Source of the DNA: Deltaproteobacteria bacterium
GTDB lineage: Bacteria; Myxococcota_A; UBA9160; UBA6930
NCBI GenBank assembly: GCA_029261795.1
Contig: JAJDAP010000034.1
Coordinates: 9,858 to 73,857, forward strand
Direction of reading: 5' to 3'
Length of the DNA: 64,000 nucleotides
Made by a program: the position numbers and the translations under genes. This document shows, piece by piece, positions 5,190 to 17,391 of the stretch (position 1 is its first letter; each line of letters opens with the position of its first letter). The notes beneath the pieces were generated by a model, which was not told the origin of the DNA, made no database searches, and saw only the letters and a program-made list of their open reading frames with translations.

Positions 5190-5226
5190 GTTCTCCTCGG
5201 TCTACCGGTCTCTTGTGGCCCTGTAC

Positions 5227-5252
5227 TACGGGAGCGGCGTCGCCCTGTGACT
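5227..5252 (-). promoter_or_regulatory. Putative ECF promoter copy 3: AGTCAC-N16-CGTA
   Basis: Minus strand AGTCAC agggcgacgccgctcc CGTA; 38 nt before ATG 5189. Confidence 0.75.
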
Positions 5253-5327
5253 TCGAATGTCGTGGGGGAGCGTCCGCGGCGTCGCCTCTGCAGGCCGGTC
5301 GGCGGGTGCCGGCTGCACTTTTTCTCC

Positions 5328-5354
5328 AGTCACCAGATCGACCCGGATGCCGTA
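5328..5354 (+). promoter_or_regulatory. Putative ECF promoter copy 4 (mtrAB): AGTCAC-N17-CGTA
   Basis: AGTCAC cagatcgacccggatgc CGTA; 63 nt before ATG 5417. Confidence 0.78.
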
Positions 5355-5416
5355 GTACGCGTTGCAGCGGAGTTTGCAGTCCCGTGGGACGCAGCGGCGA
5401 GAAGGGCGATGTCACG

Positions 5417-6373
5417 ATGAACAGCTTGACAGCCTCCAAGCGAACGAGGATTGCCACACTCTGCGTAGGGTCGTTCGTAGCGGCCCTCGTGGCCTGCGTC
5501 AGCGTGGTCTGGACCCCGCTGGGGCCCCGCCGCACGGCCGACGTCGCAAACGCGGAACCCATCGGTGCTCCTGTCTGCGCGGCCTGTCACGAGCAGGTGC
5601 ATGGACAAGAGTCTCCGGCTCCCTTCCACGCGGACTGCGAGAGCTGCCATGGACCGGGAAGCCTTCACGCCGCGAGTGGCGACACTCAGCTCATCCGCTT
5701 CCCGGGTAACGACGACTGTCTCGCGTGTCACACGGAGGGCGTGGCCGAGCACATGGAGTGGGGGACCAGCGAGCACGCCCGCGCTGGGTTGTACTGCTCC
5801 GACTGCCACAATCCCCACAGCGGTGAGGAGAGCGAGCTCCGGCCCTTCGAGCAGGTCGCCCTCCCACGCATCGATCTCGAGTCCGCCCTCTGCGTCGAGT
5901 GCCACCGGGACGTGGCGTCGCGCCTGAAGTTTCCTTCGCACCATCCCGTGGCCGAGGGGGCGCTGGGATGCACCAGCTGCCACAACGCTCACGAAGACCG
6001 GCGCGTCTCGTTCGGTGATCGCAACGAGCGTTGTGCGACCTGCCACCAGGACTACATGGGCCCCTGGGTATTCGAGCACCCGCCGGTCGTCGAGGACTGC
6101 ATGACCTGCCATAACCCTCACGGCGCCGTTACCGAGAATCTCCTCGAGACGATCCAGCCCGTGATCTGTCTCTCCTGTCACTCCCTCCCGGACAGCCGAC
6201 ATCACACCACGGGCTCGTCCGGAATCCCCGGCCAATCGACCATCAGTGGCGACTACCCGACAGCGCCCGGGACGACCATCGGAACGCAGGAGGCCAGAGC
6301 CTTCTTGCGCCGGTGCACCGACTGCCATAGCGCGGTCCACGGATCCTATACCGATGAACACCTACGTCACTAG
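5417..6373 (+). CDS. mtrA: Decaheme c-type cytochrome, MtrA/DmsE/MtoA/PioA family
   Basis: Exactly 10 CXXCH (CAACH, CESCH, CLACH, CSDCH, CVECH, CTSCH, CATCH, CMTCH, CLSCH, CTDCH); GPWVFEHPPV..C..CHNPHG family signature; N-terminal signal with possible LVAC lipobox; start moved to ATG 5417. Confidence 0.93.
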   Translation: MNSLTASKRTRIATLCVGSFVAALVACVSVVWTPLGPRRTADVANAEPIGAPVCAACHEQVHGQESPAPFHADCESCHGPGSLHAASGDTQLIRFPGNDDCLACHTEGVAEHMEWGTSEHARAGLYCSDCHNPHSGEESELRPFEQVALPRIDLESALCVECHRDVASRLKFPSHHPVAEGALGCTSCHNAHEDRRVSFGDRNERCATCHQDYMGPWVFEHPPVVEDCMTCHNPHGAVTENLLETIQPVICLSCHSLPDSRHHTTGSSGIPGQSTISGDYPTAPGTTIGTQEARAFLRRCTDCHSAVHGSYTDEHLRH

Positions 6374-8483
6374 AGCCGCCATCCTCGCCGGCTACGTCCT
6401 CATTGCGACGCCGTTGCTGGCGGACGATCTGACACCGCGAGGCGATGTCACCGTGGGCATCCAGCTCTACCGCCCGGAGGGCCCATTCGAGCGCGACGAC
6501 ACGGCCTCGTTCTTCGACAAGTACCGGTACCTCAAGAACAAGGGCACCGATCTGCCGTTCTTCGTCGATCTGACGCACCTCGACCTGGGCCTCGTCCGCG
6601 ACGACGGAACCTACGCAGTTCGCTTGCAGCGCTGGAGCCCCGGGTGGTCGAACGATCGTGCCGAGCTGGAGGGGGGCTGGCCGGGAGTGTCGCTGCTGGC
6701 CGACTATCGTCGCTATCGGAGCGACGAGCTCCGTTTGTTCTCGAGTCCGACCGGCGTCGGCAGCGCATTCGCCAGCGTGTTCAACGACGACACGTCCGCG
6801 GACGACCGCTTCTTCGTGCGACGAACGAGTGCGGGGCTGGCGGTTCGCGTGCGTCCCGCAGGCTTCGACCACCCATCCGACCTCCTGAAGGAACTGGAGT
6901 TCTCCTCGCGATACGAGCACCGGAGCGGCCAGCGCCAGGATCGCTACGTGCTGAGCGGTTCCCAGGAGCGCGGTGCCGGGGGTCTCAATACGTCCCGCTT
7001 CCGGGCGTTCACCCGGGACATCGACCAGGACGTCACCAGCATCGGGACGCGGATCGTTTCGACTCCCTGGGATCTGCTCACCAGCGCTATCGAGTTGGAG
7101 TTCGAGAGTTTTCGCGAGCGCGCTCCCACTACCACGCTCGGCGCGGGAGAGCCGGGGAGTATCTCGGCCTTCGATCCGGTCGGTATTCTCGCCGGATTCC
7201 AGGATCCCCTGAAGTCACTGCGCGCTTTCAACTACGTCCCTGACACGGATCGCCTGTACGCGTCGCTGCGCGTCCGGCCCCATCTGGGACCGGTTCAATT
7301 CCACGGCGGCGCGTCTGTCACGCGCTTGAAGCAGGCGGGGAGTCGCGCGCCGGAGCAGATCGCCTTTGGCCTCGATGACAATTCGGTCACGACCTATTCG
7401 ATCTACGGCGCTGGCGAGTTTCCGCTGACCGATCAGTTGGCCCTCAACGGGTACGCGAAGTTCTGGAAGCGCCGCAACGCACTCGATTCGGGCAACATCC
7501 TATTCTCCAAGGATCAGACGGACGCCTTCCTCGAGCAGCTGCGCGAGGTGAAGAACGGCCTGGAGCTTCGCGCCACACCGATGGCGGGAACGGACCTGAC
7601 GCTGGGATATCGGGGACGCTTCGTCCGGCGCGACCTCGAGTTCCAGAAGAGCACCCGTTCCGTGGCGCCCGAGTTCACGATCATCGGTGAGGACACCACG
7701 ATACACACCGGCTACCTGGGCTGGAACCTTCGTCTGGTACGGAGCCTCCAACTCTCCGGGGAGGCGGGTTACGAGAACGGCACCGAAATCGGGTACCCGC
7801 GAGAGCTGGAGCGCGCGTACTACGCGAAGGCCCGAGTCTCCTACGTGCTGCCCCGCCCCGTCCCGATGACGCTCACGGCGTCCGGCCGCTTCCTCGACGG
7901 CGAGAGCGACGAGATCGAGCTACTGGGCGAATCAGCGGGAGCGCGGCGCAAGCAGTTCGAGGTGAGACGCTGGAACTACGACGTGACCTTGACAGCGGTT
8001 CCCAAGGAATCGCTCGTGGTCTTCGGCTCGTTCACCCAGCACCGCAACGAGGAACGGTTCGCGCACCTGCGCTCCAATATCCGCCGGTTCGAGGGACCGG
8101 TGCCGGCGAGCATCCTGAACTTCTTCATCGATTCGGTCCCGCAGTACGAAAGCGACGTACTGAGCGTCACCCTTGGTGGCAGCTACCAGATCAGCAAGAC
8201 ACTCGAGGCATCCCTGGCGACCACGGTCACCAGAACCCGCGTCGACATCGCGGGCGGAGGTGGAGCCGCCCGCGCCCTCGACGAAGTCAATCAGATCCGG
8301 AACCAGATCACGAGCATCGAGTGCGGCCTGTCCTATCGAGCCACCCGGCAGGTTCGGCTAGACCTGGGATACCGGTTCGACCGATTCCACGACGATGTCC
8401 GACTGGAGGCACTCGACTTCAGCACGCGCGAGCACACACTCTCGGTCAGCGTGACGATGGACCTCGATGCGCTGACCCCCTGA
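6354..8483 (+). CDS. mtrB: Outer-membrane beta-barrel porin, MtrB/PioB family
   Basis: About 709 aa, Sec signal, alternating amphipathic beta-strand pattern throughout, overlaps the 3' end of mtrA; family call rests mainly on size and synteny. Confidence 0.82.
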   Translation: MNTYVTRAAILAGYVLIATPLLADDLTPRGDVTVGIQLYRPEGPFERDDTASFFDKYRYLKNKGTDLPFFVDLTHLDLGLVRDDGTYAVRLQRWSPGWSNDRAELEGGWPGVSLLADYRRYRSDELRLFSSPTGVGSAFASVFNDDTSADDRFFVRRTSAGLAVRVRPAGFDHPSDLLKELEFSSRYEHRSGQRQDRYVLSGSQERGAGGLNTSRFRAFTRDIDQDVTSIGTRIVSTPWDLLTSAIELEFESFRERAPTTTLGAGEPGSISAFDPVGILAGFQDPLKSLRAFNYVPDTDRLYASLRVRPHLGPVQFHGGASVTRLKQAGSRAPEQIAFGLDDNSVTTYSIYGAGEFPLTDQLALNGYAKFWKRRNALDSGNILFSKDQTDAFLEQLREVKNGLELRATPMAGTDLTLGYRGRFVRRDLEFQKSTRSVAPEFTIIGEDTTIHTGYLGWNLRLVRSLQLSGEAGYENGTEIGYPRELERAYYAKARVSYVLPRPVPMTLTASGRFLDGESDEIELLGESAGARRKQFEVRRWNYDVTLTAVPKESLVVFGSFTQHRNEERFAHLRSNIRRFEGPVPASILNFFIDSVPQYESDVLSVTLGGSYQISKTLEASLATTVTRTRVDIAGGGGAARALDEVNQIRNQITSIECGLSYRATRQVRLDLGYRFDRFHDDVRLEALDFSTREHTLSVSVTMDLDALTP

Positions 8484-8513: not shown

Positions 8514-10040
8514 TCACGATCCTCCATCGGGACGCTTCGCGGGAAGCACCTCGTAGACGATCGCGGTACAGAAACTCAGCATGATGCCCGCGATGAAGAT
8601 CAACGGGCTGTAGGGAAGCACGGGGTCCTGGTAGACCTCGGCGCCCACCCCCGCGGAGCCGGCGAAACCGACAATGGCGAGTGTCAGCCCGACCGCGAGC
8701 GTCGCCCCCGCGATCCACGTTCGGCGCGTCTCCGACTCAGGGGCCTCGTCTGGCGCCCCGTCTTCAGGATGCGCGAGCGGCACGATCGGAAAGATCTTGG
8801 CGAAGAGCAGGAACGCCAGGCTCGCCAACCCGAACAGGCCCGCGACCACACTGAGCTCCACCCAGTTCGGAACGTAGTGGCCCTTCGCGTAGGGGAGCAG
8901 CATCCCGTCCGTCTGCGATGGGACGACGATCAGCAAGCGTTTCAGGATCGCACCGACGTTGATCACGGCTGCTGCTGCCACGTACCAGCCGATCCGCGTC
9001 GTCCGGCTCAGGAACCGCCAGAGCAGCAGACCGAACCCAAGCGCCAGGGTGCCTACCGTGGACCAGAACATCCAGGCGTACGAGCCGGACACCAGCGAGT
9101 GCTCGAGCGCGCGTTCGGCCGTGGGTGCCGCGTAGCCCGCGGTCAGCTCCTCCACGCCCATCAGGTAGAGATAGGCGAGCGTCAGGACACACTGGAAGTT
9201 CCCCAGGGTCCGGAACGCGGCCGCCTCGATCACGTCCTCCAGATGCATGAGCTTTCGGGCGGAGGCTGCAATGAGGGTCAGCATGGCCAGGCCCGAGGCC
9301 CCTGCGAGAACCACGAAGCTCGGCGCCTGGAGCGCGCTGAACCAGCCCGGCCGACCCGCCACGATCCCGAACACGAAGCCGAGCGTCGAATGGGCAACGA
9401 CCAGGAGCGGGAGGATGAGCAGGGAGAGCCAGAAACTCACCACGCGGTGCCGCGCCGCCTCGGCATGCGTGCCGCGGAACCCGCTTCCCCACAGACGGTG
9501 GAGCCACCTCCAACGCGAGGGAACGCTGGCGCACGTCGCCGCACACGCGCGGCCCGCGAGGAAGAAGTAGACGAGACTGGCGAACAGGTAGCCGGCGACG
9601 ACCAGCGTGAACGTTCCGAAGAAGGGTGATGACGGCCTCGCGTAGAGCGGGAGGTACAGCAGGCCATGCAACGGCCGGCCGAGATCGGCCATGATGGTCA
9701 TCCCGCCCATCAACAGCGCAATGATTGTGAGGAACTCGGCCATCCGCGTGAGTGGCCGGAGTTCCGGTAGTGGAAACAGCCGTACCAGCGCCGCCGCGCT
9801 GATCCCGGCAAAACTCACGCCCACGAAGTAGATGTCGAATGCGACGTAGAGCCCCCATGCCGCGCCGCCCTGGCCGATCGTGCGAAGACCGGTCGCGACC
9901 AGTCCCTCGCGAAGCTGAACGGAATAGGCCCACGCGCCCCACAGCGCCAGCGATGCGGAAACCCCGACGGCGGCCAACCAGTATCGGCCCGGGCGATCGA
10001 GCCCGAGGGCGTCCCTGCGTTCCTGGGTAGTTTGCTCCAC
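8514..10040 (-). CDS. NrfD/PsrC-family quinone-interacting membrane subunit (QrcD/ActC-like)
   Basis: WGLYVAFDIYFVG, MADLGRP..., SSPFF, HSTLGFVFG...RPGWFS, Y.PNWVEL motifs; about 10 TM plus 2 extra C-terminal TM. Confidence 0.9.
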   Translation of the reverse strand: MEQTTQERRDALGLDRPGRYWLAAVGVSASLALWGAWAYSVQLREGLVATGLRTIGQGGAAWGLYVAFDIYFVGVSFAGISAAALVRLFPLPELRPLTRMAEFLTIIALLMGGMTIMADLGRPLHGLLYLPLYARPSSPFFGTFTLVVAGYLFASLVYFFLAGRACAATCASVPSRWRWLHRLWGSGFRGTHAEAARHRVVSFWLSLLILPLLVVAHSTLGFVFGIVAGRPGWFSALQAPSFVVLAGASGLAMLTLIAASARKLMHLEDVIEAAAFRTLGNFQCVLTLAYLYLMGVEELTAGYAAPTAERALEHSLVSGSYAWMFWSTVGTLALGFGLLLWRFLSRTTRIGWYVAAAAVINVGAILKRLLIVVPSQTDGMLLPYAKGHYVPNWVELSVVAGLFGLASLAFLLFAKIFPIVPLAHPEDGAPDEAPESETRRTWIAGATLAVGLTLAIVGFAGSAGVGAEVYQDPVLPYSPLIFIAGIMLSFCTAIVYEVLPAKRPDGGS

Positions 10041-10042
10041 GG

Positions 10043-10903
10043 TCAGTGGCGCCTCTCACGTCGAAGATGGAAGACCTTGGGCTTCGTGCCGAGGTGCTCG
10101 AGCAGCTGGTCGGCGCGCGGGCTCGTCGCCGCGAGAGCCACCCGGCTCCCCGGATCGTTCAGGTCGCCGAAGACGATGGCCTCGGCGGGGCACGACTCGG
10201 CACAAGCCGGCAGCGACTGGAAGTCGGTATCGGACAGGCTGACCCCGTCGACCCTGGCGCTTTCTGTCACCGAACGGATCCGGTGGGAGCAGAACGTGCA
10301 CTTCTCCACGACGCCGGCGGGACGCGTGGCAACGTCGGGGTTCAAGGTGTTGAGGTGGCTGGTCGGCCACTCGGGGGCATCCCAGTTGAAGAAGCGGACG
10401 CCGTAGGGGCACGCGACCTCACAGAAGCGGCAGCCAATGCAGCGGTCGTAGATCTGGGCGACGATTCCGTCGCCAGTTTGATAGGTGGCGCCAACCGGGC
10501 AAACCGGAACACAAGGCGGGTCTTCGCAATGCAAACAGGGCAGCGGAAGCATTTCTGGAGCTGATTCGCTCCCCTCGGAACGGTCTTCGAGCGGCAACAG
10601 GTTCATCCACAGGATGTCGGTTCCGTCGCTCTCTTCGGCGCTGCCGGTGGCCGGTACGTTGTTTTCCGTGCGGCACGCCACCACACAGGCTCCGCAACCC
10701 GTACAACGATCGAGATCGATCGCCATGCCCCATTTTCGCTTCTCGTCATCCGTCGCGACGGTCCTCTCCCGCTCGGGCGAACCCGCCAGCGCGCGTCGCG
10801 GGGAGGACATCAGGAACGCCCATAGTGCGCTCGCTGCGACGAGCGCCGAAACCACGAAGCGATGGGCGAACGCCCGGCGCGTCAGATTGCGGGGGATCAT
10901 CAT
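10043..10903 (-). CDS. 4Fe-4S dicluster electron-transfer subunit (NrfC/QrcC/DsrO-like)
   Basis: Four cluster motifs CTGCGACVVAC, CLHCEDPPCVPVCP, CIGCRFCEVACP, CTFC..CAESCP; Tat-like TRRAF. Confidence 0.93.
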   Translation of the reverse strand: MMIPRNLTRRAFAHRFVVSALVAASALWAFLMSSPRRALAGSPERERTVATDDEKRKWGMAIDLDRCTGCGACVVACRTENNVPATGSAEESDGTDILWMNLLPLEDRSEGSESAPEMLPLPCLHCEDPPCVPVCPVGATYQTGDGIVAQIYDRCIGCRFCEVACPYGVRFFNWDAPEWPTSHLNTLNPDVATRPAGVVEKCTFCSHRIRSVTESARVDGVSLSDTDFQSLPACAESCPAEAIVFGDLNDPGSRVALAATSPRADQLLEHLGTKPKVFHLRRERRH

Positions 10904-10907
10904 TTCC

Positions 10908-13277
10908 CTACGCCCTCCGGATCCGCACGTTTACACCCTGCAGCACCGGCGTCCCGACGAACGGATCGAGTTCGTGTGGGATCAACTCCATGACGTTGGC
11001 CCCCCTGCCAAGTGCGAAGCGGCCCCATGCCGTGTGGCCGCCGCCCTTCGCGATCCGTACGACATCGGGGTGCACGCCCGCCCGAACGGCCACCGGCAGC
11101 TCGATCGATCCCAGGGGGCTCTCGATCCGCACCCGATCGCCCGCCGCAACGTGGGCCTGATCGGCGGTGTCGGGATGGAGGAATGCGGTGGTCTGCCAGG
11201 CGCGGTCACCAGGCTCGGTCACGAGTTCCTGCAGCACGGGAAGGTTGGCGCCGCTGCCTTCGGCGTACGAGCCGGGTTGGTACGGCTCGAGCAGCAACGG
11301 GAAGTCCGGGCTCGAGTGCTTCGCGGGATCGGCGAAGTGCGGCAGGCACGCAAGCTCGCGATCGATCCCGACTCCGGATTCGCGAAGCCAGCTTTCGCCG
11401 AAGCCCTGCCAGAGTCGGAGGGAGAAGAACTCGAACCTGCCGGAGGGGGTGCGAATCGACTCCTGGCGAGGGGAACCAGGGTCCTCCCAGAACCCGCGGC
11501 GGAACAATGCGCGCAGGAAGTGCGGCACGCTTCCTTCGATGATCGACCCGCGCTGCGCCTCATGGATCCCGCTGAGTCGTTCAAAGAGTGCAGCACGGAA
11601 GTCAGGCCATGGAAACGCTTCAGCGACCTTCCCACCCATCTGGCGCGCCAGTTCCAACACGACATCTGCACTCGGCCGGGTGTCGTGGAGCGGTTCCACC
11701 AGCGGTTGGCGAACGCCCTGCACCGGAAAACCGACGCTAGGCGCGGAGGCAGCGTCCTCCCAACGTTCGAGATAGCTGTGATCCGGAAGCACGAGATCCG
11801 CGATCTCGGCAGTGGTCTCGTCCAGGAACGGCGAGAAGCTCACGACGAACGGGACGCGTGCGAGCGCGCGACGCCAGCGCGCTGGGTCCATTCCGGAATA
11901 GCAGGGGTTCGAGTAGTAGAGGAACAACGTGTCGATGGAGCCGGCTGGTTGCGCGAGCAGGGCGTCCGCAAGGTCGTCGATGCCGCGCGATCCCAGCGGC
12001 CGGGACGACGTGGCGATTCCCGGTCGCTGCAGACTCGCCTGCGCGAGGTCGTCCAACTCCAGCGAAGGCCAATCGGCCGTGGGCGGGTCGCTCTGGACAA
12101 GGAGTCCACCAGGACGATCAATGGCACCGAGGAGCGCATTCAGTGCATGTACCGCCATGGCGGTGTGGAGTGCACCGCGCTCGCGGGTTCCGACCCCCCG
12201 AGACACCACGAAGGACGGCCCATTGGCGGCGAGTTCGGCCGCCAAACGCTCGACCGTCTCCGTCGGAATCCGGCAGCACTCCGCGACGCGCTCAGGGGAG
12301 TAGTCGCGCACCAGGAGGTCCCGGAAGCCCCTATGCGTACGGCCCTGGTCATCGGTCCAGTTTTCGAACCCGAAGGCGCGCCCGGCAATGAAGTCGCGGT
12401 CGTAGAGACGGTCGCGTACCAGCACGTGCGCGAGGCCCATGGCGAGCGCACCATACGAGCCCGGGGCAATCCGGACCCACTCGTCAGCATTCGCCGCGGT
12501 GCGAGAGTACGACGGCTCTACCTGGACGATCGTGCCTCGCTCGGCTCCGCGGTGAGTGCGGTAGTGCACCGTCGAGCGCGCTTGATGCACGGACTGGCAG
12601 GACTCCTCGAGAAGAGGAGCTCCCAGGCTCAGGACGTAACGGGCTCGTGGCCAGTCATACGCTGGCGTCTCGCGGACGCCTTGCATGGCGTAGAGGGCGC
12701 TGGCCGTTGCGCCGTCCTTGCGCAGGGACACATCCAGGAATGTCGGTGTTCCGAAACTTCGGGCGAAGCGCTCCCAGAGGTCGCGGATCATGCCACGCTC
12801 GCGGCCACAGACGATTGCGAGCCTGTCTGGACGCCCCCTCGAACGCAGGGCTCCGAGGCGAGTGGCCAGACCCGAGAGCGCCTCGTCCCACGAGACCTCC
12901 GCAAGCGCTCCGCCTTGTCGTCGCATCGGTCCGCGGATCCGATCGGGGTCGTACAGAACGTACGGGGAGGCCAACCCGCGCGGCCCGATGCCACCAGGAT
13001 GGACTGGGTTGCCCGGCTGGCCGCGAACGGAAACCACCCTGCCTTCGACCACTCGCGCGGAGATGCCACAACCGGCCGGACACTGCGCACACGCGGTCGC
13101 AATCGTCTTCTCTTCATGCAGGTTCCATCGCTCTGCGCCGGGCACCGACGGTTTCTCGAGCGAGTAGGGATCCTGGCTCGAGCACGCTGCGAGCGGGGCT
13201 CCGGCGACGACACCGGCTCCCGCCCTCAGGAAATTCCGGCGTCCGGCATCGTGCGGGCGTCCCTTCGGCCACGTCAT
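10908..13277 (-). CDS. Molybdopterin oxidoreductase-family (DMSOR/CISM) large subunit, QrcB/ActB-like, probably non-catalytic
   Basis: Tat GRRNFL; CAQCPAGC; YDPDRIRGPM; EPSYSRTAANADEW..I.PG..GALA; ADLVLPDHSYLERW; HPDTA C-terminal domain; start ATG 13277 overlaps the upstream stop. Confidence 0.88.
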   Translation of the reverse strand: MTWPKGRPHDAGRRNFLRAGAGVVAGAPLAACSSQDPYSLEKPSVPGAERWNLHEEKTIATACAQCPAGCGISARVVEGRVVSVRGQPGNPVHPGGIGPRGLASPYVLYDPDRIRGPMRRQGGALAEVSWDEALSGLATRLGALRSRGRPDRLAIVCGRERGMIRDLWERFARSFGTPTFLDVSLRKDGATASALYAMQGVRETPAYDWPRARYVLSLGAPLLEESCQSVHQARSTVHYRTHRGAERGTIVQVEPSYSRTAANADEWVRIAPGSYGALAMGLAHVLVRDRLYDRDFIAGRAFGFENWTDDQGRTHRGFRDLLVRDYSPERVAECCRIPTETVERLAAELAANGPSFVVSRGVGTRERGALHTAMAVHALNALLGAIDRPGGLLVQSDPPTADWPSLELDDLAQASLQRPGIATSSRPLGSRGIDDLADALLAQPAGSIDTLFLYYSNPCYSGMDPARWRRALARVPFVVSFSPFLDETTAEIADLVLPDHSYLERWEDAASAPSVGFPVQGVRQPLVEPLHDTRPSADVVLELARQMGGKVAEAFPWPDFRAALFERLSGIHEAQRGSIIEGSVPHFLRALFRRGFWEDPGSPRQESIRTPSGRFEFFSLRLWQGFGESWLRESGVGIDRELACLPHFADPAKHSSPDFPLLLEPYQPGSYAEGSGANLPVLQELVTEPGDRAWQTTAFLHPDTADQAHVAAGDRVRIESPLGSIELPVAVRAGVHPDVVRIAKGGGHTAWGRFALGRGANVMELIPHELDPFVGTPVLQGVNVRIRRA

Positions 13278-13795
13278 TGGTGGCACGCCAGGCATTCGAG
13301 CGTGGCTCCGTATTGCGTGTGACACGACATGCAGTCCTCCATTGACTGCATCGACGCATCCGGTCGGCTGTAGGGCCGGGGCATCCGGGCGACGTCCACA
13401 TGGCACTCACCACAGGACATCTCGGCGAGCGACACATGCACTCGGTGGGAGAAATAGACGTGGCCGGGGTAGCGATTCACCTGGACGAACGGGATCTGCT
13501 CGCCGCGTGCGGCGTACCCGCTCACCTTGGCCAGCTCCGGCCGATCGGACGGCCCAGAATGGCATTGTGCGCAGACCCGGATGGAAGGCAGGCCCGCGTG
13601 GCGGTTGGTCCCCGCGCTCCCGTGGCACGCTGCGCACTCTAGCTGTACGTCGCCGACGTGGAGTGAATGATCGAAGGCGACGGGTTGCACGACCGCGGCT
13701 GGTCCCTCGCACGCTCGAGCAACTGCAAGGCCCACAACGAGAAAGGTTGCCGCAGACAGACCCGCGATCAGTGTCGGGAGGCGGATTCGCTCCAT
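13274..13795 (-). CDS. Membrane-anchored pentaheme cytochrome c (QrcA/ActA-like)
   Basis: 5 CXXCH (CAACH, CAQCH, CGECH, CMSCH, CLACH); FDHSLH and FSHRVH distal His motifs; N-terminal TM; GGAGG RBS (TTG 13798 is an alternative start). Confidence 0.9.
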   Translation of the reverse strand: MERIRLPTLIAGLSAATFLVVGLAVARACEGPAAVVQPVAFDHSLHVGDVQLECAACHGSAGTNRHAGLPSIRVCAQCHSGPSDRPELAKVSGYAARGEQIPFVQVNRYPGHVYFSHRVHVSLAEMSCGECHVDVARMPRPYSRPDASMQSMEDCMSCHTQYGATLECLACHQ

Positions 13796-13833
13796 CAACG
13801 ATCACCTCCCGGCTCGATCACGAACGATGAACC

Positions 13834-14235
13834 TCAGTCGGAGCCCGGCGAGGACTCGTCGGGCGTCTTCCCGAGCTCGGAGAGATAGGCCACGATCGAG
13901 TCGAGTTCTGCCTCCGTTCCCGTGAAGCCCATGGGATGCTTCCTTCCGTCCAGATCCACCTCCTTGCGAAGGAACGCAACGATCCACTCGGATTGATGCC
14001 GGTCGCCCACGAGGGAGAGGTCGGGGGGACCATTCGACGCGTCCTCCTCTCCGAACGGATCGTCTGCAACAGCAGGCGACGAGCCGAGCTTTTCGACCCC
14101 ATCCGTGGCAATGCCGTGGCAGAGGTTGCAGCGCTGCTGCAGGAACTTGTCCCTACCCTCCTCCGCGGCGGCAGGGGCCGCCGTGAGCAGAGCCGCGAAG
14201 GCAACCCACAACCCGCATGCAATGAGCTTCCACAT
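13834..14235 (-). CDS. Periplasmic monoheme cytochrome c
   Basis: Sec signal ..PAAA; CNLCH; PDLSLVG; HPMGF candidate Met ligand; GGAGG RBS before ATG 14235. Confidence 0.85.
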   Translation of the reverse strand: MWKLIACGLWVAFAALLTAAPAAAEEGRDKFLQQRCNLCHGIATDGVEKLGSSPAVADDPFGEEDASNGPPDLSLVGDRHQSEWIVAFLRKEVDLDGRKHPMGFTGTEAELDSIVAYLSELGKTPDESSPGSD

Positions 14236-14279
14236 CTTCCCTCCCCGAGCGAATCGCTCCATGGAGATCCTGCCGTGTA

Positions 14280-14306
14280 TACGGCACGAGCGTGCCGGAA
14301 GTGACT
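14280..14306 (-). promoter_or_regulatory. Putative ECF promoter copy 5 (cytochrome/Qrc-like operon): AGTCAC-N17-CGTA
   Basis: Minus strand AGTCAC ttccggcacgctcgtgc CGTA; 45 nt before ATG 14235. Confidence 0.78.
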
Positions 14307-17365: not shown

Positions 17366-17391
17366 GGTCACGATTCCGGGTCTTGAACGTA
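17366..17391 (+). promoter_or_regulatory. Putative ECF promoter copy 8 (cus operon): GGTCAC-N16-CGTA
   Basis: GGTCAC gattccgggtcttgaa CGTA; 46 nt before GTG 17437; shares GGTCACGAT.CCG with copy 1. Confidence 0.78.

Follow-up and report, generated by a model that had tools for sequence, protein, structure and literature searches.

A molybdoenzyme-like lipoprotein without a recognizable molybdenum ligand, likely a non-catalytic subunit of a Qrc- and alternative complex III-like system in a Deltaproteobacteria bacterium

Here, we analyzed a stretch of 64,000 nucleotides (the window) of contig JAJDAP010000034.1 from the assembly GCA_029261795.1 of a Deltaproteobacteria bacterium (Myxococcota_A; UBA9160). 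The window carries a five-gene operon on the minus strand, which encodes, in this order, a monohaem cytochrome c, a pentahaem cytochrome (subunit A), a large molybdoenzyme-like protein (B), an iron-sulfur (FeS) protein (C) and an NrfD-type membrane protein (D). We focused on B, in which a first-pass annotation made by a model had reported that both the fourth cysteine of the FS0 site and the molybdenum (Mo) ligating residue are missing. The gene and the segments of the protein on which the analysis turns are located as follows:

10908–13277, minus strand: gene of the B subunit, with the ATG at 13275–13277 and the stop at 10908–10910; 789 codons, 789 amino acids.
13182–13241, minus strand: twin-arginine motif (Arg13-Arg14) and, after it, a lipobox with Cys32 as its last residue, both read from the translation.
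12978–13091, minus strand: FS0 region with Cys63, Cys66, Cys70, Asn90 (position -8) and Arg100, and with Gly98 where the fourth Cys would be expected.
12708–12755, minus strand: former Mo-ligand segment, residues 175–190, with Lys187 at the ligand column followed by Asp188-Gly189.
12597–12599, minus strand: Cys227, a Cys specific to and invariant in the clade of B defined below (30/30, versus Arg in 18/18 canonical relatives).
12453–12455, minus strand: Tyr275, which stands where the Pro-Gly-Thr-Asp motif has its guanine-binding Asp.

B belongs to the dimethyl sulfoxide (DMSO) reductase (MopB) superfamily, both by its Pfam domain scores (PF04879, 34.9 with a cut-off of 22.7; PF00384, 89.4 with a cut-off of 24; PF01568, 46.3 with a cut-off of 26.8) and by its four-domain fold. 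The AlphaFold2 (AF2) model (pLDDT 86.1, pTM 0.88; low confidence limited to the signal peptide and residues 221–250) predicts this fold to be complete and of the ArrA/PsrA type. Structurally, the model matches ArrA (6CZ7) with a VIA Z of 38.8 and a root-mean-square deviation of 2.4 Å over 709 residues, PsrA (2VPW) with a VIA Z of 34.9 and the solved ActB chains with 32.0 and 29.7. ArrA and PsrA are also the best sequence matches among solved structures (HMMER, E = 8e-61 and 1e-47, respectively), and the ESM Atlas annotates B as 'Molybdopterin oxidoreductase', commonest in Myxococcota. The 789 codons of the open reading frame (ORF) were checked for in-frame stops and contain none, and hence no selenocysteine codon.

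A database search returned 1289 homologues of B at E ≤ 1e-10, the nearest foreign one being 54–56% identical, and most of them carry generic names ('molybdopterin-dependent oxidoreductase', 'selenocysteine-containing dehydrogenase') or no name. For the comparisons described here, 80 related loci from many phyla were collected by scanning species-representative genomes, residues were counted among 120 database homologues, and a family tree of 95 rows was built. The order B-C-D is conserved in essentially all 80 loci, and the motif table together with the 95-row tree splits the family into three groups. The first comprises the canonical relatives, which possess the fourth FS0 Cys as well as the ligand Cys, have no upstream cytochrome gene and occur, among others, in Chloroflexota, Methylomirabilota, Nitrososphaerota and Thermoplasmatota. 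An intermediate second group combines the cytochrome and an intact FS0 motif with an altered ligand segment. The third, with 30 rows and 100% support, is the clade of B itself, whose members all have Gly for the fourth Cys and have all lost the ligand Cys; its hosts are Planctomycetota, Myxococcota, Fibrobacterota, Acidobacteriota and Binatia, and the rows nearest to B stem from a 'delta proteobacterium' and a Binatia metagenome-assembled genome (MAG). The lipobox Cys32 is found in 90% of the clade and in 4/4 sampled ActB proteins, and is absent in the canonical relatives and in true QrcB.

The pairwise HMMER alignments disagree on the Mo-ligand column of B, since the ligand Cys of ArrA falls on Lys187 and that of PsrA on Asp188. 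In the MAFFT alignment, the canonical relatives (36–40% identical to B) carry the segment His-Ser-Ser-Ile-Cys-x-Asp-Gly with their Cys on Lys187, which settles the disagreement in favor of Lys187; the Asp188-Gly189 pair of B corresponds to the Asp-Gly pair after the ligand. Aligned in this way, B has none of Cys, Sec, Ser or Asp at the canonical ligand column, and the earlier statement that the Mo-ligating residue is missing was thus borne out. Across the clade, the same column is variable and holds T, G, S, N, R or K. The pterin-dinucleotide contacts are affected as well. Position 275 is Asp in 18/18 canonical and 13/13 group-2 relatives and in 0/30 members of the clade, where Tyr (16), His (5), Ser (4) and Asn (2) are the commonest residues, and the Arg of Asp-Pro-Arg is replaced by Ser256 in B. 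Judged from these alignments, B therefore contains neither an intact Mo ligand (Lys187) nor the conserved dinucleotide contacts, namely the Asp of Pro-Gly-Thr-Asp (Tyr275) and the Arg of Asp-Pro-Arg (Ser256). More broadly, we defined 230 canonical-invariant columns (at least 90% invariant in the 18 canonical relatives), of which the clade retains 111 at 80% or more. Among the columns lost throughout the clade are those of the ligand Cys and of the Asp two residues later, as well as His195, Arg227, Asp275, Arg361, Asp509 and Arg675, and we assume that several of them fall in dinucleotide- or pterin-binding segments of the fold.

At the FS0 site, the first three ligands of ArrA and PsrA match Cys63, Cys66 and Cys70 of B, and in both pairwise HMMER alignments the fourth Cys is placed on Gly98, which is followed by Pro-Arg-Gly and confirms the replacement seen in the first-pass annotation. 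As far as the alignments tell, B consequently departs from catalytic enzymes, which have four Cys, or His plus three Cys, at this site. Gly98 is present in 29/29 clade members from genomes and in 102/120 database homologues, and Cys63, Cys66 and Cys70 are retained in 28/28 clade members. With Gly98 fixed and the ligand column variable across the clade, neither chance nor sequencing error explains these changes. A metal cluster is probably still bound at the old FS0 site, because the three Cys are invariant.

The loss of the fourth Cys goes along with a new one at position 227. Of the 102 Gly98-bearing database homologues, 101 have Cys227, while the canonical Cys98 homologues (17 of 120) all have Arg or Ile at this position and all retain Asp275; clade and database homologues combined, the pairing of Gly98 with Cys227 holds in 131/132 sequences. 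At the sequence level, this pair is a simple marker of the degenerate clade. The only Cys residues found clade-wide are Cys227, the FS0 triad and the lipobox Cys32, and the residues conserved specifically in the clade are Cys32, Gly98, Glu203, Pro205, Cys227, Ala373, Glu507 and Ala563. Position -8 (Asn90 in B) is Cys, Asn, Ser, His or Asp in 100/102 Gly98 sequences and changes its state at least 14 times in a FastTree tree, with Cys in 45/102. Cys644 was considered as a disulfide partner of Cys227 and rejected, as it is missing in a Kofleriaceae subclade and present in some sequences with Cys98 and Arg227.

The partner genes of B and their surroundings comprise the following features:

14280–14305, minus strand: promoter-like motif of the extracytoplasmic function (ECF) type, 18 nt before the ATG with which the monohaem gene starts.
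13834–14262, minus strand: monohaem cytochrome c of 142 amino acids, first gene of the operon, with one CXXCH, a signal-like helix and a Pfam Cytochrom_C score of 23.6 (cut-off 21.3).
13274–13798, minus strand: A subunit, a pentahaem cytochrome of 174 amino acids with an N-terminal membrane helix, five CXXCH and a Pfam cytochrome c7 match.
10043–10903, minus strand: C subunit, an FeS protein with a twin-arginine (Tat) signal and 16 Cys in four ferredoxin-type groups.
8514–10040, minus strand: D subunit, an NrfD-type membrane protein of 508 amino acids with about 10 hydrophobic helices (Pfam NrfD 85 bits, hydropathy profile).
5213–8483, plus strand: convergent neighbors outside the operon, a decahaem MtrA/DmsE-like cytochrome and a large beta-barrel-like protein.

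The operon genes are tightly spaced, with overlaps or gaps of 2–4 nt, the stop codon of A overlaps the start codon of B, and one promoter-like motif lies ahead of the first gene. The A subunit is homologous to ActA (31–33% identity) and QrcA (30%), and C is homologous to QrcC (46.5% identity to true QrcC) and ActB2 (38% to the ActB2 domain of the same genome). Scores against the NCBIfam Qrc models are 298 bits for B (NF041783, cut-off 440), 86 for A (cut-off 180), 261 for C (cut-off 400) and 26 for D (cut-off 570). C further reaches 199.5 bits for DsrO (cut-off 200), and D 69 bits for DsrP and 55 for HybB, each under the cut-off. QrcA, QrcB and QrcC are the top-scoring NCBIfam models for A, B and C, respectively, and DsrP, HybB and QrcD are those for D. 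B is not a true QrcB, since it stays under the equivalog cut-off and has no partner equivalogs. An A-type cytochrome gene lies upstream in 26/30 loci of the clade versus 0/18 canonical relatives; additional co-oriented cytochromes with 7–25 haems accompany 17/30 clade loci, and in 15/17 canonical loci, no ORF has more than three haem motifs. This genomic context points to cytochrome-based electron transfer in preference to substrate reduction, and the abundance of large multihaem cytochromes in these neighborhoods suggests a role in periplasmic or extracellular electron transfer. In four loci of Kofleriaceae and other Myxococcota (L032, L037, L053, L059), co-oriented cytochromes with 24–25 CXXCH immediately precede the pentahaem A gene, and in locus L029 the module is surrounded by ORFs with 9, 13, 24 and 10 haems.

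Altogether, we consider it likely that B is a non-catalytic scaffold or relay, forming the large, periplasmic and lipid-anchored subunit of a five-gene Qrc/ACIII-like membrane complex (ACIII, alternative complex III), and that it descends from an ArrA/Psr-like molybdoenzyme. The preference of the first-pass annotation for a scaffold or electron-relay role over a terminal reductase is supported by the loss of the Mo ligand and of the pterin-dinucleotide motifs, by the Qrc/ACIII-like operon and by the ActA/QrcA-like pentahaem gene directly upstream. The ancestor would always have been accompanied by a four-cluster FeS protein and an NrfD-type, quinone-interacting subunit. In the lineage of B, the Mo-ligating Cys and key pterin-dinucleotide contacts would have been lost and a pentahaem ActA/QrcA-like cytochrome gained upstream, so that B would no longer reduce a substrate at molybdenum. 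As in ACIII and Qrc, electrons may instead pass, in one direction or the other, among the quinone pool (at D), the FeS wire of C and the haem wire of A and the monohaem cytochrome. B itself would keep the periplasmic module assembled and anchor it to the membrane.

Several points weigh against this interpretation. That B binds neither Mo nor tungsten (W) is a prediction from its sequence. Of the 230 canonical-invariant columns, B keeps 148, more than true QrcB (134) or the ActB B1 domains (86–99), so the cofactor cavity has not simply decayed. Moreover, the new clade-invariant residues Glu203, Cys227 and Glu507 map to segments that, in canonical enzymes, border the cofactor site, and they could mean a new function instead of a passive scaffold. 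Asp188 is retained in 17/30 clade members, and in other branches of the DMSO reductase family Asp does serve as a Mo ligand. B might still be a Mo/W enzyme acting on an unknown periplasmic substrate with an unconventional ligand, either Asp188 or, as in arsenite oxidase, none at all; the fold is intact and nearest to ArrA, Asp188 is fairly well conserved, and in AioA the Mo is not ligated by the protein (PMC3758308). We regard this as highly improbable, because Asp275, Arg256, Arg227, Arg361 and other canonical-invariant residues of the cofactor segments are lost and because the gene, unlike those of the canonical relatives, is regularly paired with multihaem cytochromes. Asp188 was also rejected as a candidate Mo ligand on its own account, since it matches the canonical Asp two residues past the ligand, not the ligand itself, and is kept in little more than half of the clade.

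For the likely non-catalytic B, the occupancy of FS0 can be read in different ways. Tentatively, FS0 may be a [4Fe-4S] cluster whose fourth ligand was relocated from the FS0 loop, where Cys98 became Gly, to Cys227 in domain III; B could then possibly serve as the relay subunit of a five-cluster wire and not as a bare scaffold. Such a relocation would account for the near-complete Gly98/Cys227 pairing, for the Arg or Ile at position 227 of all canonical sequences with the fourth Cys and for the restriction of the clade-wide Cys set to the lipobox, the triad and Cys227. It also agrees with the fixation of position 98 as Gly, as opposed to a mixture of residues, with a Cys227 that is left without a disulfide partner given that Cys644 is uncoupled from it, and with the Tat motif still present in B. 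In arsenite oxidase, FS0 touches a domain-3 helix 41–53 residues past the ligand position (PMC3758308), which by simple numbering would correspond to residues 228–240 of B, immediately after Cys227. On the other side, the switch arose once, on a single branch, and the coupling thus amounts to one evolutionary event, and Cys227 falls within residues 221–250, where the AF2 model has low confidence. Furthermore, the loop with residue 227 is, as we assume, the dinucleotide-phosphate loop, which may lie more than 10 Å from FS0, and position -8 repeatedly switches among Cys, Asn, Ser and His, which hints at a different candidate for the ligand. The [3Fe-4S] cluster held by Cys63, Cys66 and Cys70 that the first-pass annotation had suggested is, in our view, doubtful. 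It would suit three invariant Cys with a non-ligating residue at the fourth position and has a precedent in AioA, whose FS0 motif of three Cys plus Ser binds a [3Fe-4S] cluster (PMC3758308), but it leaves the invariant Cys227 and the strict fixation of Gly98 unexplained, and the Cys found at position -8 in many Gly98 homologues would give four Cys again. We deem it unlikely that B holds no cofactor whatsoever, with a structural or Zn-binding Cys triad, as in the solved ACIII structures, in which B1 has no cofactor (PMC5928083, PMC7439408), and in QrcB, described as cofactor-free (PMC13059093). All FS0 Cys are lost in two QrcB-type sequences, of which one scores above and one just under the cut-off, and the site therefore appears dispensable in the QrcB lineage; in the clade of B, in turn, Cys63, Cys66, Cys70 and Cys227 are kept across at least five phyla at 40–55% overall identity. 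A further possibility, which we put forward with reserve, is that FS0 was kept and re-wired via Cys227 beside an emptied pterin cavity that gained the invariant Glu203 and Glu507. B might then be an active fifth redox center, or a new metal or substrate site, that ends the FeS wire of an ECF-sigma-controlled, cytochrome-rich complex and is anything but a dead scaffold.

The promoter-like motif ahead of the operon is one of 10 copies of GTCAC-N16/17-CGTA in the window versus 0.33 expected, all located within 101–23488 (e.g. 14280–14305 minus, 5329–5354 plus and 17367–17391 plus). Copies are found ahead of the Qrc-like operon and of the genes for the decahaem cytochrome, a glutamate dehydrogenase and Cus-type efflux, which looks like a local ECF-sigma regulon; a metal-stress control of the operon, suggested by the motif it has in common with the neighboring Cus-type efflux genes, is speculative. 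The decahaem neighbor scores 215 bits with the NCBIfam GSU2203-family decahaem model and 183 bits with the DmsE family, and matches to MtrB/PioB are weak. As listed, the decahaem ORF (5213–6373) and the beta-barrel-like ORF (6246–8483), both on the plus strand, overlap by 128 nt, and the latter probably starts further downstream than listed. A fused, full-length ActB of 1034 amino acids, with a Cys group of the [3Fe-4S] type, is encoded in the same genome (contig C35:31297–34401) downstream of an ActA-like pentahaem gene, which means that the organism has both ACIII and the Qrc-like complex.

QrcB and the B1 domain of ActB have been described as cofactor-free and non-catalytic (PMC13059093, PMC6303296, PMC5928083, PMC7439408), and the first-pass annotation had assigned B to the same pattern. 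From 61 Desulfobacterota genomes we obtained 11 proteins over the NCBIfam QrcB cut-off and one just under it, with true QrcB scoring 456–970 bits. None of these 12 QrcB-type proteins has the ligand Cys, a lipobox or a Cys at column 227 (0/12 each). Four FS0 Cys are present in 9/12 (L089 (1501–3726), L099, L101–L106 and L108), all are missing in two (L100, L107), and the first is missing in one, the highest-scoring QrcB (970 bits, L098), which has Ser there. All four Cys also occur in 4/4 sampled ActB proteins, including the one from the same genome (L001:1369–4473; L090, L091, L096). The proposed match with QrcB and ActB hence applies to the Mo ligand and fails for the fourth FS0 Cys, and the change from Cys98 to Gly appears, from the sequences compared, specific to the clade of B. 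As an aside, a four-Cys motif of the FS0 type is common in the sampled QrcB and ActB proteins although the literature terms both cofactor-free.

In a tree of 38 rows, ActB, QrcB and the family of B form three separate clades, and the Gly clade stands beside the canonical relatives. A cofactor loss independent of QrcB is favored because the Gly clade adjoins the canonical relatives in free trees, but it is not established, as the approximately unbiased (AU) test does not reject a grouping in which the Gly clade and QrcB are held together (log-likelihood difference 19.4, p = 0.131). One Desulfobacter MAG holds a group-2 member of the family, a true QrcB (540 bits) and an ActB. Two Anaerolineales loci (L049, L052) contain two B-C-D modules each (the second at L049:16394–18370), with one B carrying Ser at the Mo-ligand column and the other grouping with ActB (100% support), its gene being separate from that of the FeS subunit and thus a naturally split ActB. 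The archaeal canonical members (L041, L047, L058, L061, L065; Nitrososphaerota/Caldarchaeales, including a Wolframiiraptoraceae MAG) have the ligand Cys and four FS0 Cys, and their best-scoring model is ArrA, at 415 bits and far under the 1600-bit cut-off; they are uncharacterised Arr/Psr-like enzymes, possibly with tungsten.

In our literature search, we found no paper describing the Gly98/Cys227 clade. QrcD is restricted to Deltaproteobacteria according to a review (PMC8076601), a survey of the MopB superfamily makes no mention of Qrc (PMC10100899), and a study of Planctomycetota MAGs noted ACIII-like clusters and did not analyze the Mo-fold subunit (PMC10732223). What is new here is a delimited clade of lipoproteins marked by Gly98 and Cys227, together with its connection to large multihaem cytochromes. 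To the known cofactor-less molybdoenzyme-like subunits QrcB, ActB and NuoG, the clade adds a well-delimited lineage of more than 100 sequences from at least five phyla. Its current database labels would mislead metabolic reconstructions, for example by false calls of polysulfide, thiosulfate or arsenate respiration. Since the B-C-D frame is common to canonical members and to those that are partly or fully degenerate, the family forms a natural series from catalytic subunit to scaffold after recruitment of a multihaem cytochrome and is well suited to studying this change, and the Gly98/Cys227 pair offers a testable hypothesis of FeS ligand relocation.

Among the known systems, the C-terminal domain of Nqo3/NuoG in complex I likewise has a molybdoenzyme fold that lost its cofactor, and some species keep a structural FS0-equivalent cluster, N7. 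It differs in being cytoplasmic, derived from formate dehydrogenase and without an NrfD partner, and B matches the NuoG models weakly (23–30 bits). With AioA, B has in common three Cys and a non-Cys residue at the FS0 site (PMC3758308); AioA, by contrast, keeps its molybdenum bis(pyranopterin guanosine dinucleotide) cofactor (Mo-bisPGD), partners with a Rieske protein and is distant (VIA Z 29, 17% identity). ArrA (6CZ7) and PsrA (2VPW) are likewise partnered with a four-cluster FeS protein and an NrfD-type protein. B differs from both in lacking the Cys that ligates Mo, the fourth FS0 Cys and the Asp and Arg residues that bind the dinucleotide, and in having a multihaem cytochrome added.

Parallels are also found in Qrc and ACIII. 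Like QrcB, B is a Tat-signal subunit of the DMSO reductase fold without a Mo ligand, and the gene order of multihaem cytochrome, B, four-cluster FeS protein and NrfD-type protein is that of QrcABCD, the menaquinone reductase of Desulfobacterota. Unlike B, true QrcB has neither the lipobox nor Cys227, usually keeps four FS0 Cys and forms its own clade with 100% support, even though the AU test permits a sister relation (p = 0.13). With the B1 domain of ActB, B shares a molybdoenzyme-like domain without a Mo ligand and an N-terminal lipobox Cys, and, as in ACIII, it is partnered with a pentahaem cytochrome of the ActA type and a monohaem cytochrome. In contrast to ActB, B and the FeS subunit are encoded separately (10908–13277 and 10043–10903), without the fusion of B1 and B2. 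The operon has one NrfD-type gene and no ActD- or ActF-like gene, unlike ACIII, and the downstream gene is on the other strand. In addition, C keeps all 16 Cys and has no [3Fe-4S]-type motif, whereas the ActB of the same genome has Thr at that Cys. By these predicted features, B is not an ActB.

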